DNA of 64,000 nucleotides. Origin: Eubacteriales bacterium (GTDB lineage Bacteria > Bacillota > Clostridia > Oscillospirales > CAG-272). Within the stretch, counting starts at the first letter, position 1; each line of letters begins with the position of its first letter. Shown here one piece after another: positions 23,556-28,331 of this stretch. The stretch lies in contig JAZOMF010000094.1 of the NCBI GenBank assembly GCA_045653805.1, positions 7,438 through 71,437 of the forward strand, in the 5' to 3' direction. A model generated the notes under the pieces. The model saw nothing but the letters and a program-made list of their open reading frames with translations. It was not told the origin of the DNA and did no database searches. A program made the position numbers and the translations under genes.

Positions 23556-26240
23556 TTATTTGTCGTGCTTCTTGTCAACCGCTCTGTGGATGATCTTAAC
23601 GATCTCAACGATGGGAATGATAAGAATTGCAAGACCGAATGCGATACCGTATTCTCTGAGGTCGAGCTGTGCAAGCTCAAATGCGTTTGCCAGGAAGGGG
23701 ATCTCAATAACAACGGTGGTGAGGATGAGGGAAAGTGCTGCTGCACCCCAGAGCCACCAGTTCTGCTTCTTCATGGTGAAGATAGAGCCGTGGAGACTTC
23801 TCATGTTGAACGCGTGGCAGATCTCGCAGAGGGAAAGAGTAAGGAATGCCATGCTGGTTCCAAGTGCCTCGGCGGAGTAAAGGCCCGCTTCGATAGCTTC
23901 GTGATGGAACACATCTGCCAGCCAGAATCTACCGATGAGGTAGGAAGCCATAGTGATGATAGTTACGAGAACGCCCTGATATGCAACTGCAAAGCCAAGA
24001 CCGCCTGCGAAGATTCCTTCCTTGCTGTCACGAGGCTTGCGCTTCATGATGCTGGATTCGGGAGCCTCCATACCGAGAGCAAGTGCAGGGAAGCAGTCGG
24101 TGATGAGGTTGATCCAAAGGAGGTGTACGGGAGCAAAGATGGTAAATCCAAAGAGAGTTGCAAAGAAGATGGTAAGAACCTCGGAGAGGTTGGATGCCAG
24201 CAGGAACTGAATAGCCTTACGGATGTTATCGTAAATTCTACGTCCTTCGCCAACTGCCGCAACGATGGTTGCGAAGTTATCGTCTGCAAGGATCATATCT
24301 GCAACGTTCTTGGTAACGTCGGTACCGGTGATACCCATACCAACGCCGATGTCTGCATTCTTTATGGAGGGAGCGTCGTTAACGCCGTCACCGGTCATTG
24401 CGGTAACCATGCCCTTCTTTCTCCAAGCGTTGACGATTCTGGTCTTGTGCTCGGGCTGAACGCGAGCATAAACGCTGTACTTTTCAACTGCGGTTTCAAA
24501 CTCCTCGTCGGAGATGTCGTTGAGCTCAGCGCCTGTGATTGCCTGAGAAGCGTTGGAGATAATTCCAAGCTCGCTTGCGATTGCCACTGCGGTGTCCTTG
24601 TGGTCACCGGTGATCATAATTGCGCGGATACCTGCGCTACGGCACTCTTCGATTGCCGCTTTAACCTCGGGACGAACAGGGTCGATCATGCCAACCAGAC
24701 CAACGAAGCAAAGGTCGCACTCAACGGTCTCGGGCTCGTAATCAGCAGGAAGAGCGGTGAGATCCTTCTTTGCTGCTGCAAGAACTCTGAGAGCCTTGTC
24801 TGCCATAGCTTTGTTTGCTACGAGGATGTTAGCCTTGATTTCTTCGGTCATATCAACGATCTGACCGCCAACGAGAGCCTTGGTGCACTTCTTAAGAAGC
24901 TCGTCGGGAGCACCCTTGGTGAACTGAACGAGTGTACCGTCCTCGGTCTTGTGGATGGTGGACATCATCTTTCTGCCGGAATCGAAGGGAACCTCGCCAA
25001 CTCTCTCAAACTTAACCTTTTCGGTGTTCTTGGAAAGACCAAGATTTTCAGCGTAGTTGACGAGAGCTGCCTCGGTAGGCTCACCGACTGCGGTGCCTGC
25101 CTCGGTGTCAAACTCTGCGTCGGAGCAGAGGGACATAGCGTTTGCAAGAAGAGCCTCGTCGTCGCCGTAGTGGTCAACAACGGTCATCTTGTTCTGGGTA
25201 AGAGTACCGGTCTTGTCGGAGCAGATGATCTGTGTGCATCCGTGAGTCTCAACTGCGGTAAGCTTACGAATGATCGCGTTACGCTTTGACATATTGGTAA
25301 CGCCGATAGAAAGAACGATAGTAACAACGGTTGCAAGTCCCTCGGGGATAGCCGCAACTGCAAGAGAGATAGCTATCATGAAGGAATTGAGGATAGGCTC
25401 AAAGCCGATACCGTCACGAATAAGCTGAACGCCGAAAATAACTACGCAGATACCGATAACGAGGTAGGTAAGGATCTTGGAAAGACCTGCGAGCTTGATC
25501 TGAAGGGGAGTCTTTCCCTCTTCTGCCTGTGCGAGCGCATCTGCGATCTTACCCATTTCGGTATCCATACCGGTAGCAACAACTACTGCCTTGCCACGTC
25601 CGTAAACTACTACGGAGCCCATAAATACCATGTTCTTGCGGTCACCGAGAGCAACGTCGCCGTTCTCTCCTGCGGTGAGAGTCTCTTCCTTCTTGTCAAC
25701 GGGAACAGATTCACCTGTAAGTGCCGCTTCCTCGATCTTCATAGAAGCGCACTCAATGATACGAGCGTCTGCAGGAACTGCATCACCTGCTTCAAGAACG
25801 ATAATGTCACCAACTACCAAGTCTTCACTGGGAATGCTGATGAGCTTGCCGTCACGAATGACCTTACTCTGTGCCTTGGACATTTCCTGGAGTGCTTCAA
25901 TAGCCTTTTCAGCCTTGCTCTCCTGGAAAACGCCGAGAATTGCGTTAATAAGAACTACCGCAAGGATGATAACAACGTCAGCAGGGAACTCAAAGCCGTG
26001 CTGCAAGCCGTTGTAAATTTCAACGCCTGCGGAAACACCCGCTGCCACCAAAAGGATGATGGTCATAGGCTCTGCTAATTGCTTAAAGAAACGAACTACG
26101 AGGGATTCTTTCTTTCCCTCGGCGAGCTTGTTTTTGCCGTTTGTCTCGAGTCTGGCAGCGGCTTCAGCGGCGGTAAGACCGTCGGCTGTGGAGCCAACCT
26201 CTTCGATAACCTCGGCGGAGGATCTGAGATACTCTTTCAT
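23556..26240 (-). CDS. P2-type cation-transporting (Ca2+/Mn2+-like) P-type ATPase
   Basis: TGES, IPEGL, DKTGTLT, KGAPD, MITGD, TGDGVND, QFLLASN, WINLITD. Confidence 0.96.
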   Translation of the reverse strand: MKEYLRSSAEVIEEVGSTADGLTAAEAAARLETNGKNKLAEGKKESLVVRFFKQLAEPMTIILLVAAGVSAGVEIYNGLQHGFEFPADVVIILAVVLINAILGVFQESKAEKAIEALQEMSKAQSKVIRDGKLISIPSEDLVVGDIIVLEAGDAVPADARIIECASMKIEEAALTGESVPVDKKEETLTAGENGDVALGDRKNMVFMGSVVVYGRGKAVVVATGMDTEMGKIADALAQAEEGKTPLQIKLAGLSKILTYLVIGICVVIFGVQLIRDGIGFEPILNSFMIAISLAVAAIPEGLATVVTIVLSIGVTNMSKRNAIIRKLTAVETHGCTQIICSDKTGTLTQNKMTVVDHYGDDEALLANAMSLCSDAEFDTEAGTAVGEPTEAALVNYAENLGLSKNTEKVKFERVGEVPFDSGRKMMSTIHKTEDGTLVQFTKGAPDELLKKCTKALVGGQIVDMTEEIKANILVANKAMADKALRVLAAAKKDLTALPADYEPETVECDLCFVGLVGMIDPVRPEVKAAIEECRSAGIRAIMITGDHKDTAVAIASELGIISNASQAITGAELNDISDEEFETAVEKYSVYARVQPEHKTRIVNAWRKKGMVTAMTGDGVNDAPSIKNADIGVGMGITGTDVTKNVADMILADDNFATIVAAVGEGRRIYDNIRKAIQFLLASNLSEVLTIFFATLFGFTIFAPVHLLWINLITDCFPALALGMEAPESSIMKRKPRDSKEGIFAGGLGFAVAYQGVLVTIITMASYLIGRFWLADVFHHEAIEAGLYSAEALGTSMAFLTLSLCEICHAFNMRSLHGSIFTMKKQNWWLWGAAALSLILTTVVIEIPFLANAFELAQLDLREYGIAFGLAILIIPIVEIVKIIHRAVDKKHDK

Positions 26241-26294
26241 GTTTGTCGAAAACTCCTTTTTGATTTTTTGTTTTCGCGGAGGTCTTTTTCGTGA

Positions 26295-26327
26295 AAAAAA
26301 GACCTATCCGCCCATGCAGATAAGTCT
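26295..26327 (-). terminator. Riboswitch terminator overlapping the aptamer 3' end
   Basis: Minus strand GACTTATCTGC-ATGG-GCGGATAGGTC-TTTTTTT. Confidence 0.75.
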
Positions 26328-26408
26328 CATCATTTCAAATAAAGCCACGGCAAAAAATTGCCCGTGATGTTGACTTTATCACGCTTTCGCGCTGATTACT
26401 CCCTTATA
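26320..26408 (-). promoter_or_regulatory. yybP-ykoY (Mn2+-sensing) riboswitch aptamer
   Basis: Minus strand TAAGGGAGTA...GTCAACAT...TGGC...TGAGACTTA, the conserved blocks of this class; upstream of a P-type ATPase, a known target type. Confidence 0.85.
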
Positions 26409-26580
26409 CCAGAATATTTTATCAAATAAATGCGCGTTTGTCAATAGATATTGAAGAAAATTTTACTCGTTTCAAGGAGATTTTTGCCAAAAATCAAGCA
26501 AATTATTTGTGCAAAATCCGGAAAAAGAGAATTTTTTGCATCTAAATCGTAAATAAACTGTTAATAAGAGGGTGTTTCGC

Positions 26581-26609
26581 TTGACATTAGCGTGGGGGCA
26601 TGGTATTAT
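26581..26609 (+). promoter_or_regulatory. sigma-A promoter of the leader peptide / CorC-type gene
   Basis: TTGACA, 17 bp, TATTAT with extended TG. Confidence 0.8.
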
Positions 26610-26644
26610 AAACGAAATAATTTCGAAAGGAAAGGTATTTTACG

Positions 26645-26722
26645 ATGGATGACGGCGATAGTACGGACACTACCTGTATGTGTAATGTAACTGTTGTGCG
26701 TGGTTTTCATTATATCTCATAA
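26645..26722 (+). CDS. Putative 25-aa leader peptide MDDGDSTDTTCMCNVTVVRGFHYIS
   Basis: SD AAAGGT 8 nt upstream; lies between the promoter and a terminator-like hairpin. Confidence 0.55.
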   Translation: MDDGDSTDTTCMCNVTVVRGFHYIS

Positions 26723-26730
26723 ATCGTGCG

Positions 26731-26789
26731 GCATAGCTTTACGCTTTCTCTGAAATGATAGGAGAGGGGGGTATTGACTATGCTTTTTT
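26731..26789 (+). terminator. Attenuator-like terminator upstream of the CorC-type gene
   Basis: GCATAG (26731-36) ... CTATGC (26778-83) closing a long irregular hairpin, then TTTTTT. Confidence 0.55.
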
Positions 26790-26852
26790 GCGTTTTTGAA
26801 ATTTTTGAAAAATCATTGAATATTATTGTAAAAAGAAAACGGAGACATTACA

Positions 26853-28331
26853 ATGGAAAATTACATAGTGCCTATATTATTACAGGTTGTTCTTATTGCG
26901 TTAAACGCTATATTTGCAAGCGCCGAAGCGGCATTTTTGTCAATTAATTCGGCAAGAATTGAAAAAATTATTGAAGAAGGCGACAGAAAGACCAAAAAGA
27001 GTGCGAGAAGACTTCAGAAGCTTACGAAGGATTCCTCCAAATTCTTGTCTACTATTCAGGTTGCCATCACATTGGCAGGATTTTTGGGTTCTGCATTTGC
27101 GGCTGAAAGCTTCGCAACTCCCTTGACAGAGTGGTTTAATAGCTTACCCTTTATGGCAAACAGCGGTTACGAGGTTGTTGAGGGTGTATTTGTTGTTATT
27201 ATTACGGTTGCGCTCTCCTTCTTTAGCATTGTCTTTGGCGAGCTTGTTCCCAAGAAGATCGCTATGAAGAACGCTGAAAAGCTTTCGCTCGGTATTTCCG
27301 GCTTTATCAGATTTATGTCGGTTATCTTTGCTCCTGTGGTTTGGATTCTTACTATAACCACTAACGCTATTCTTCGTATGTTTGGCATCAACCCCAACGA
27401 GGAAGAGGAGGCAGCAAGCGAGGAAGAGATCCGTATCATGCTGGATACCTCCAGCGAGGCGGGTGCTATCGACAGTATGGAAAACGAGATGATACAGAAT
27501 ATCTTCGAGTTCGACGACATTCTCATTTCTGAAGTATGTACTCACCGCCGCGACGTGGATATGCTCTACCGTGAGGATACTCTCGACGAGTGGAGAGAGA
27601 AGATCGTTACCTCAAGACACGGACTTTACCCCATCTGCGGAGAGGGTCCCGACGATATCGTTGGCGTGCTGAATATTAGGAAGTTCTTCAGATCCGATTG
27701 CAAGACCGTTGAGGATGCAATCGCCAAGGCAAGCGAAAAGCCCTACTTCGTGCCAGAAAACATGAAGGCGGACGTTCTCTTTACCAACATGAAGGAAACG
27801 AGAAACTATTTCGCTATCGTTGTAGACGAGTACGGCGGAACAAGTGGTGTTATCACCATTCACGATCTGCTTGAATTGCTGGTTGGCGATATGGGAGATA
27901 AGGAGGACGTTGTGGTTGAGGAGATCGTATGCCTCAGCGAGGAGGATTCTCAGTGGAAGATCCTCGGCTCTGCATCTCTTGAAAAGGTTGCAGAAGCACT
28001 TGACGTTACCTTTGAGACCGAGGATTGCGACACCTTTGGCGGATATATTCTCGGACTTCTCGGTGAGATCCCCGATGATGGAGCTACACTTGATCTTGAG
28101 ACCAATGACCTTACCATTAAGGTTGAGTCGGTTTCCGAGCACCGCATAGAATCTACTCTTGTAACCGTTAAGCCCAGACCCGCAGACGAGGATGACGAGG
28201 ACTACGATGAAGATGAGGACGAAGACGGCGAAAAGAAGAAGAAACGCAAGTCCAAGGATAATGATGAGGATGAAACCAAGTCTGAATCCGAGGAAAAAAC
28301 AAATTCTGCTGAGTCTGTTGCAGAAGAATAA
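26853..28331 (+). CDS. HlyC/CorC (CNNM-like) family protein: DUF21 TM domain, CBS pair, CorC domain, charged tail
   Basis: FASAEAAFLS, STIQVAITL, FGELVPKKIA, VVDEYGGTSGVITIHDLLE, TFGGYI. Confidence 0.93.
   Translation: MENYIVPILLQVVLIALNAIFASAEAAFLSINSARIEKIIEEGDRKTKKSARRLQKLTKDSSKFLSTIQVAITLAGFLGSAFAAESFATPLTEWFNSLPFMANSGYEVVEGVFVVIITVALSFFSIVFGELVPKKIAMKNAEKLSLGISGFIRFMSVIFAPVVWILTITTNAILRMFGINPNEEEEAASEEEIRIMLDTSSEAGAIDSMENEMIQNIFEFDDILISEVCTHRRDVDMLYREDTLDEWREKIVTSRHGLYPICGEGPDDIVGVLNIRKFFRSDCKTVEDAIAKASEKPYFVPENMKADVLFTNMKETRNYFAIVVDEYGGTSGVITIHDLLELLVGDMGDKEDVVVEEIVCLSEEDSQWKILGSASLEKVAEALDVTFETEDCDTFGGYILGLLGEIPDDGATLDLETNDLTIKVESVSEHRIESTLVTVKPRPADEDDEDYDEDEDEDGEKKKKRKSKDNDEDETKSESEEKTNSAESVAEE

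Follow-up and report, generated by a model that had tools for sequence, protein, structure and literature searches.

Nascent peptides whose N-terminus is rich in Asp, Glu and Pro (DE/P-rich sequences) abort their own translation, a phenomenon called intrinsic ribosome destabilisation (Chadani et al., 10.1101/2021.02.02.429294). The E. coli protein YbeX/CorC starts with MSDDNSHSSDT and shows an Asp-dependent accumulation of peptidyl-tRNA as well as footprints which drop after codon 11; for other N-terminal DE/P-rich sequences it was shown that the abortion is enhanced by low Mg2+ and by the loss of bL31, and small neighbouring residues favour it (10.1101/2021.02.02.429294). The same authors proposed that high Mg2+ relieves the abortion within YbeX, with more CorC as the result (10.1101/2021.02.02.429294). 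For the small upstream open reading frame (uORF) YoaL, removal of the start codon lowers the translation of MgpA (PMC12421838). How Mg2+ is sensed in Gram-positive anaerobes which have no M-box, and when bacteria switch on efflux through CNNM/CorB/CorC proteins, whose family is conserved from bacteria to humans, is largely unknown. Full-text searches of papers and preprints gave no report in which CNNM/CorB/CorC genes of Firmicutes are controlled by a leader-peptide attenuator, the nearest cases being MgtL, the proposal on YbeX/CorC and the uncharacterised YoaL-mgpA pair; this agrees with a first-pass annotation of the DNA treated here, made from its letters alone, according to which no such leader is known to have been described in Clostridia. 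We describe here the leader of a CNNM transporter gene in a stretch of 64,000 nucleotides from an Eubacteriales bacterium (Clostridia, Oscillospirales; contig JAZOMF010000094.1 of assembly GCA_045653805.1, positions 7,438 to 71,437 of the forward strand). We call this whole stretch the window, and all coordinates are those of the window unless a contig is named.

The leader contains a short uORF whose peptide starts with a cluster of Asp, then an intrinsic terminator a few nucleotides after the stop codon, then the gene. Judging from its sequence and from those of its relatives, it is very probably a genuine leader-peptide attenuator whose outcome depends on the ribosome. For the full mechanism, in which a ribosome destabilisation depending on Mg2+ or on polycations would be the signal, we consider the chances to be even. 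The parts of the leader are the following (SD stands for Shine-Dalgarno sequence).

26581..26609, + strand: sigma-70-type promoter TTGACA-17-(TG)TATTAT, matching the consensus at 11/12 positions, with an extended -10 TG
26626..26635, + strand: SD of the leader ORF, AAAGGAAAGG, 9 nt 5' of its ATG
26645..26722, + strand: uORF MDDGDSTDTTCMCNVTVVRGFHYIS, 25 codons plus TAA (ATG at 26645, TAA at 26720-26722)
26723..26730, + strand: spacer of 8 nt between stop codon and stem
26731..26789, + strand: intrinsic terminator, a long bulged hairpin (26731-26783) followed by T6 (26784-26789)
26750..26762, + strand: apical loop of the terminator, CTGAAATGATAGG (also written CUGAAAUGAUAGG)
26841..26845, + strand: SD of the CNNM gene, GGAGA, about 50 nt past the T6 region
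26853..28331, + strand: CNNM/CorB-type transporter gene, 492 aa (DUF21/CNNM transmembrane domain, CBS pair and CorC_HlyC)

The first-pass annotation had read this leader as a promoter, an SD, an Asp-rich uORF, a stop at 26722, a gap of 8 nt, a hairpin, T6 and then the gene, and each of these parts was found in its place. Most orthologous loci show the same -35 and -10 boxes, the SD block AAAGGAAGGTA is invariant or near-invariant among 21 orthologues, and GGAG also stands 7-8 nt ahead of the CNNM ATG in orthologues. The window peptide, at a place where no such ORF is annotated, has Asp at residues 2, 3, 5 and 8: its start, MDDGDSTDTT, has four Asp within residues 2-8, the others being Gly, Ser and Thr, and the uORF also contains several Thr and Cys codons (the Cys including C11 and C13). 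The arms of the terminator are GCATAGC on the 5' side and GACTATGC on the 3' side, with GCGTTTTT directly after T6. Throughout the 1.76-Mb genome, this uORF is the sole intergenic, SD-led short ORF with at least four Asp or Glu, and no Lys or Arg, in residues 2-9. As the ORF is unique in the genome in this respect and is kept in every close orthologous locus, the layout is far beyond chance.

On the + strand of the leader, no Rfam family was found at the gathering score in a search of the whole window, nor at E<10 in a search of 26240-26900, which bears out the earlier statement that no M-box is visible there. The M-box (RF00380) was found neither in the genome of the window nor in 24 of the 25 relatives searched. 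The reading of the leader as a known riboswitch was rejected on these grounds, namely the lack of any Rfam match on the + strand and the genome-wide absence of the M-box.

With the CNNM protein as query, 30 loci were retrieved from 61 related genomes. Those whose CNNM protein is at least 70% identical (n=25) are called close orthologous loci in the following; the leaders are compared as 21 distinct orthologous sequences. The conservation of the uORF, on which the first-pass annotation had staked its reading, is complete among them: the uORF stands at the same place in 25/25 close orthologous loci, with the consensus MDDGDSTDT.C.C...VV[RH]xFHYIS. Its three differences in length are one-codon insertions (alignment columns 10, 13 and 17) which keep the frame. 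Codons 2-8 and the last five codons show 10 synonymous and 0 non-synonymous variants among the orthologues, the variants seen being GAT/GAC, GGC/GGG/GGT, ACG/ACA, GAC/GAT, CAT/CAC, TAT/TAC, ATC/ATT/ATA and TCA/TCG. The synonymous share of single-base changes in those codons is 17.6%, so that 10 out of 10 corresponds to p ~3e-8. The first eight residues are invariant and the middle of the peptide is variable; codon 20 of the window peptide is unconstrained and encodes G, V, T, D, A or Q. Because the uORF is kept in all the close loci, because its indels are in frame and because its flanking codons change only synonymously, the alignment shows it to be a coding element whose peptide is subject to purifying selection.

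The first nine codons, matched exactly as nucleotides, are present in 27 species-representative genomes, all of them uncultured Clostridia, Oscillospiraceae or 'Eubacteriales' metagenome-assembled genomes (MAGs); the sources named in their record titles are the gut or faeces of goat, sheep or roe deer. One of the orthologous loci (L023, genome G031) has a 1-nt deletion near codon 20, after which the shifted frame ends in the terminator (MDDGDSTDTTCVLCSFVTVIHNFIIYHKMLAYPTCIF). The deletion may be a natural variant akin to the leaders whose ORF runs into the terminator, or an error of the MAG assembly.

The hairpin of the window (26731-26783) has a folding energy of -20.3 kcal/mol (z = -3.4), and 0/200 shuffled sequences were as stable. 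All of the 21 distinct orthologous leaders have a hairpin of -16 to -25 kcal/mol followed by a U-run. Conservation of sequence is seen at the foot of the stem (GCATAGCC/GGTCTATGC); in mid-stem the sequence changes and the pairing is retained. When the 16 long-type hairpins are aligned, standard pairs fill 90% of the cells, a share which falls to 40-56% on sliding the 3' partners; changes on both sides are found at 6 pairs, and the covariation score was matched by 2/500 shuffles. As far as the alignment can tell, the terminator is maintained by compensatory changes. The length of the spacer is kept as well (5-9 nt in 21/21 leaders, its sequence being free), so that uORF, spacer, hairpin and U-run are retained jointly in every distinct orthologous leader. 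The apical loop CTGAAATGATAGG is identical in 16/21 leaders although the stem below it varies, and the motif is missing from the 5/21 which have a short terminator; no partner sequence was found for this loop.

When the entire leader is folded with a partition function, the probability that the seven 5'-arm bases pair with downstream sequence is P>=0.96, and for upstream sequence it is P=0.000. No antiterminator was found by minimum-free-energy (MFE) or partition-function folding of the full leader or of the leader deprived of the 3' arm, nor by the fold of the alignment. Since the 5' arm has no upstream partner, the naked leader RNA would only terminate; since it has no alternative partner, only a ribosome which reaches the end of the uORF could block termination.

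Acidic uORFs near a terminator, which the first-pass annotation had suggested looking for upstream of other CNNM/CorC homologues, are found there: in the close orthologues they have the 5-9 nt spacing, and in the whole class 14/60 loci have an acidic uORF, 10 of these 14 with a terminator at or just after it. Within the genus, orthologues 52% identical to the window protein are preceded by uORFs reading MDADGC(S/C)F..., with the stop 5-7 nt before the terminator in three of them and inside the hairpin in the fourth. In other families of the same order, uORFs such as MDTDEGDST... and MDEPPLSTNHPPPEC... stand before CNNM, and a GTG-started MDPLPRSCPE... does so in four genomes of that order. There, too, the stop of MESDSNGVPE... 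falls in the loop of the terminator, and MDGGSCDPDAN... reads through a terminator.

For the class as a whole, 150 Clostridia genomes spread evenly over it were sampled and 60 CNNM upstream regions were read. The rule was an SD-led uORF with at least three Asp or Glu in residues 2-9 and no Lys or Arg in residues 2-6. It selects 14/60 CNNM leaders against 0/60 reverse complements of the same regions, and 7/635 of the other upstream intergenic regions of the window genome (Fisher p = 2e-11 against 14/60). Two of the 14 (L084 and L100) look like false positives, and three leaders seen by eye fail the rule (L086, MDDSPSPRS; L089, MEDSSVSDIEPPS; L090, MKDSADSDSESP). Of the 16 closest class-level orthologues, which are 45-51% identical and belong to different families, the rule selects 8, and inspection by eye shows a uORF of this kind in 11. 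Examples from the class are MDSDSSVDCRVCC, MDDESHCCCC, MEDSDVPERS, MEDSTDGDNPR, MDDSPLPE(P/R)C, MDSDSSVDC, MEDTADSDSESESPNERC, MDDSSGPEPGPERQCC, MDDEPGETEKC and MDDYPTDV. A stable hairpin with a T-run overlaps the uORF or comes just after it in 10/14 cases, and the stop is often inside the hairpin. Because several of these terminators are spelled CATAGCC...TATGC-TTTTTGCG, as in the window, the sequences suggest that the entire leader descended in common with this CNNM subfamily.

A separate observation, for which there is no statistical control, is that at many CNNM loci of other Clostridia which have no uORF, the N-terminus of the transporter itself is rich in Asp, Pro and Gly (L060, L062, L067, L068, L076, L095, L097, L117, L118, L120, L123, L135 and L137). 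These N-termini, such as MSDDGSIP, MNDDGIP, MTDPDPT, MQSDDPDPD, MDDPGG, MDDGGG, MDGGS, MDPDS and MEDGNP, recall that of E. coli YbeX/CorC.

We propose that the leader works in the following way. The strong promoter would set off transcription, and ribosomes would translate the leader ORF of 25 codons. By default, when no ribosome is present, the long hairpin and the U-tract would form and the RNA would end before the CNNM gene. A ribosome which terminates at a stop codon protects about 10 nt beyond it (toeprint at about +16 from the P-site codon), and the bottom pairs of the stem must close for an intrinsic terminator to act. Because of this protection, and because the spacer measures only 5-9 nt, a ribosome with the stop codon in its A site would cover the spacer together with the bottom base pairs of the terminator; the hairpin would be unable to close while RNA polymerase is on the U-tract, and read-through would result. 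In the more distant relatives, the ORF itself extends into the stem of the terminator. Read-through would need a ribosome finishing the leader ORF in step with RNA polymerase, and the decision point would be the first ten codons, MDDGDSTDTT. At these codons, intrinsic ribosome destabilisation would lead to the abortive release of a short peptidyl-tRNA whenever the ribosomes are poorly stabilised by Mg2+, and probably by other polycations too. The abortion reported for YbeX/CorC makes this idea concrete, by analogy. Low free Mg2+ would lead to abortion, hence to termination, and no exporter would be made; at high Mg2+ the peptide would be finished, the terminator masked and the CNNM exporter made. 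The exporter is thus probably made only when ribosomes finish a peptide which is hard to translate. Abortion at the uORF, the role of Mg2+ or polycations as the signal and the export of Mg2+ by the CNNM protein are all inferred. The predicted sign, ON at high Mg2+, fits an exporter and would be the mirror image of MgtL/mgtA.

The Mg2+ attenuator of the first-pass annotation is supported in part, namely in its architecture and its logic, by the selection on the peptide, the covariation in the terminator, the 5-9 nt spacing, the missing antiterminator and the recurrence in other families. The simple model leaves three features unexplained, namely FHYIS at the C-terminus, the Cys which recurs and the synonymous sites, which are almost frozen, and these features weigh against it together with several other points. 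When identical residues are compared pairwise, the fraction with the same codon is 0.91 in the uORF and 0.57 in the CNNM gene of these genomes. Among the fixed codons, many are rarely used in the window genome (AGT 0.11, ACG 0.14, ACT 0.18, TGT 0.27, CGT 0.16), and the last sense codon, TCA, is at 0.07. RNAalifold predicts a single helix inside the uORF, AUGGA/UUCAU with GCGAUAGU/ACUGUUGU, all pairs of which are invariant and which one orthologue breaks; this only predicted helix has no covariation (z = -0.7) and leaves the frozen synonymous sites unexplained. At the other end of the peptide, FHYIS and the stop are invariant and change only synonymously. Cys occurs in residues 2-18 of 18/24 leader peptides against about 34% expected (p ~4e-5, for peptides which are not phylogenetically independent). 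The best NCBIfam match of the transporter is the polyamine exporter PaeA, with 195 of 500 bits, far below the cut-off. As for expression, the public runs which contain this DNA are metagenome contigs (depth 2-7), the single 'RNA?' run yields one contig of 236 nt inside the coding sequence, and run searches with the leader alone and with the leader of a relative gave nothing usable. Intrinsic ribosome destabilisation was shown in E. coli, not in Clostridia. Lastly, the masking requires a ribosome at most about 60 nt behind RNA polymerase; in B. subtilis, the one well-studied Firmicute, transcription often outruns translation.

The frozen synonymous sites could possibly reflect a polymerase-pause hairpin of the kind known from the trp leader, with release by the first ribosome, or a selection for slow decoding, and FHYIS with the stop could lengthen the stay of the ribosome at the stop codon. 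One may go further and imagine a peptide of two modules. In such a peptide, the Asp cluster and the recurrent Cys would form a nascent-chain ligand field sensing a divalent cation in the tunnel, and VV(R/H)xFHYIS-stop, with its rare codons, would hold the ribosome at the foot of the terminator until polymerase escapes. We regard this as improbable; if it were true, the leader would be a metal-sensing arrest peptide acting at termination, and would belong to an ancient family of leader peptides which sense cations throughout the Clostridia.

Other explanations share part of the evidence. The same masking architecture could respond to a transition metal (Co2+, Zn2+ or Mn2+) or to polyamines, with CNNM exporting that species. 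The enrichment of Cys after the acidic block, with C11 and C13 in the window peptide, the sub-cut-off match to PaeA, the naming of CorC proteins for Mg2+/Co2+ efflux and the divergent neighbour, a metal ATPase behind a leader that resembles an Mn2+ riboswitch, all go in this direction. We nevertheless find this unlikely, given that 6/24 leader peptides have no Cys in residues 2-18 and that the feature common to them is Asp, Glu and Pro with small residues, which is the known composition for ribosome destabilisation; to our knowledge there is also no precedent for the direct binding of a metal by a nascent chain inside the tunnel. A smaller chance is left to a generic translation-coupled leader, which would tie CNNM to translation capacity or to a fixed low expression, the acidity of the peptide having no sensing role. 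By its geometry, read-through needs only a ribosome at the stop, and any slower initiation or elongation would lower it. Such a leader does not account for the eight N-terminal residues being invariant under purely synonymous change, nor for the independent-looking leaders of other families, which also start with Asp, Glu and Pro (the 14/60 against 7/635 given above).

The uORF could also encode a free-standing small protein (for example one which works with or regulates the transporter, or which binds a metal), the hairpin being an ordinary leaky terminator. The conservation up to the C-terminal VV[RH]xFHYIS, which a pure N-terminal abortion sensor would not need, is the argument for it. The middle of the peptide is variable, however, the peptides of other families are wholly different after the acidic start, and many of their ORFs continue through the terminator to arbitrary end points. 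Moreover, the leader peptide has no hydrophobic segment and belongs to no known family (searches of the window peptide and five relatives at E<10 gave no NCBIfam match and, in Pfam, only chance sub-threshold ones), and the distance from stop to stem is conserved; we consider this reading very unlikely. Less credible still is an RNA-only element, either a riboswitch or a protein-binding leader, in which the ORF would be incidental. The synonymous sites, more conserved than those of the CNNM gene, and the invariant apical loop would suit it, but the variation in the flanking codons is purely synonymous, the indels are purely in frame, SD and ATG are conserved and no Rfam family matches. In addition, the consensus fold 5' of the terminator consists of the invariant, non-significant helix alone, and distant leaders retain the start of the peptide, not the nucleotide sequence. 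The least credible of all is a classical amino-acid attenuator sensing the charging of tRNA-Asp (or of the Thr or Cys tRNAs), to which the four Asp codons among the first eight and the several Thr and Cys codons might point. Against this, the leader precedes a cation-transporter gene instead of an amino-acid gene, and there is no antiterminator which a stalled ribosome could favour, so that starvation would turn the gene off, which is regulatory nonsense for such an attenuator.

The product of the gene itself matches CNNM (4.7e-48), CBS (7e-11) and CorC_HlyC (1.7e-15) in Pfam, all above the cut-offs. Among solved structures, the closest to it are 7m1t/7m1u (deposited as 'Hemolysin, contains CBS domains') and entries for CorC, 4hg0 for instance. 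It reaches no NCBIfam equivalog cut-off (CorC has 107 of 379 bits). Its substrate is most likely Mg2+, polyamines or another divalent cation being possible. The last residues of the transporter (about 45, 28190-28331) contain low-complexity runs of Asp and Glu and a cluster of Lys and Arg (DEDDEDYDEDEDEDGEKKKKRKSKDNDEDETKSE...); this acidic and basic tail falls outside the Pfam domains, and its conservation in the orthologues is poor.

The divergent neighbour of the CNNM gene (23556-26240, - strand) is a P-type ATPase of the SERCA/PMR1 (Ca2+/Mn2+) kind, and the two genes are paired in synteny in 20/30 loci. The ATPase has its own leader on the - strand (26294-26416, with a terminator at 26328-26299 and a promoter at 26444-26416). 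This leader has a sub-threshold match to the yybP-ykoY Mn2+ riboswitch, with 21 bits for a cut-off of 45 (E = 1e-3 in a search of 661 nt). A motif search found its core GGGAGTA...GTCAACAT and its terminator kept in 12 orthologous loci, with compensatory changes in the stems; the yybP-ykoY-like match was not recovered in eight orthologous loci by an Rfam E-value search, the search space being larger. From its sequence, this leader looks like a divergent variant of the Mn2+ riboswitch which Rfam misses. Elsewhere in the window genome there is one mgtE gene (contig C7, 3560-5130), and no corA was found. In the mgtE leader of about 60 nt we saw no M-box, uORF or terminator, and the MgtE protein starts with a Glu-rich extension of about 90 residues (MADFEKDQLPREPIESENGENNEIVEN...). 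Finally we must note that a short frame, MDEDAPF(S/Q)..., occurs in three unrelated intergenic regions of the same genome (contigs C29, around 13375; C77, around 14060; C92, around 260); a dispersed repeat element is a likelier explanation for it than a gene.

The window locus and its differently spelled relatives before the same gene family suggest that the ribosome itself is the sensor. If this is true, the principle of MgtL and of intrinsic ribosome destabilisation reaches beyond enterobacteria, with the opposite sign and for an exporter, and provides a compact, portable and protein-free sensor of cation status. It can be compared with several known systems. The M-box (ykoK) is likewise a device of the 5' leader which uses an intrinsic terminator for Mg2+-transport genes in Firmicutes; it is an RNA aptamer without an ORF, which turns importers OFF at high Mg2+, and nothing at the window leader matches it. 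Attenuators of the trp and his type depend on an antiterminator (the 2:3 helix) together with runs of regulatory codons, and the window leader has no such helix. The pyrBI leader of E. coli, like the present one, has a leader ORF followed by an intrinsic terminator, and the ribosome translating up to or into the terminator physically blocks the hairpin. Its signal, unlike the one proposed here, is the pausing of polymerase which depends on uridine triphosphate (UTP), not the sequence of the leader peptide itself. YoaL, in Salmonella and E. coli, is also a small uORF before a gene with a CorC domain (mgpA/yoaE, TerC-CBS-CorC) which is induced by high Mg2+, but its ORF extends over the mgpA start, its effect seems to be on translation, and no terminator takes part.

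The comparison with YbeX/CorC is closer, as the composition is nearly the same (Asp with Ser, Thr and Gly in the first 11 residues), the proteins belong to the same superfamily and the proposed logic is the same (also PMC12421838). In E. coli, however, the sequence is the N-terminus of CorC itself and acts on translation only, whereas here a separate, more acidic peptide is encoded by an ORF of 25 codons and the read-out would be termination. MgtL, which precedes mgtA in Salmonella and E. coli, is also a short ORF ahead of a Mg2+-transport gene (for the window gene, Mg2+ is the presumed substrate), is rich in Asp, Glu and Pro directly after Met (MEPDPT) and uses the ribosome as sensor, its translation being aborted more easily when Mg2+ is low (10.1101/2021.02.02.429294). 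In contrast to the window leader, whose terminator is intrinsic and has no alternative RNA structure, MgtL turns an importer ON at low Mg2+ by way of alternative stem-loops and Rho. Because there is no sequence similarity between the two, because the terminator is intrinsic and because the regulatory sign is reversed, the window leader is not a member of the MgtL family: it precedes a gene of the exporter type, which is predicted to be ON at high Mg2+.

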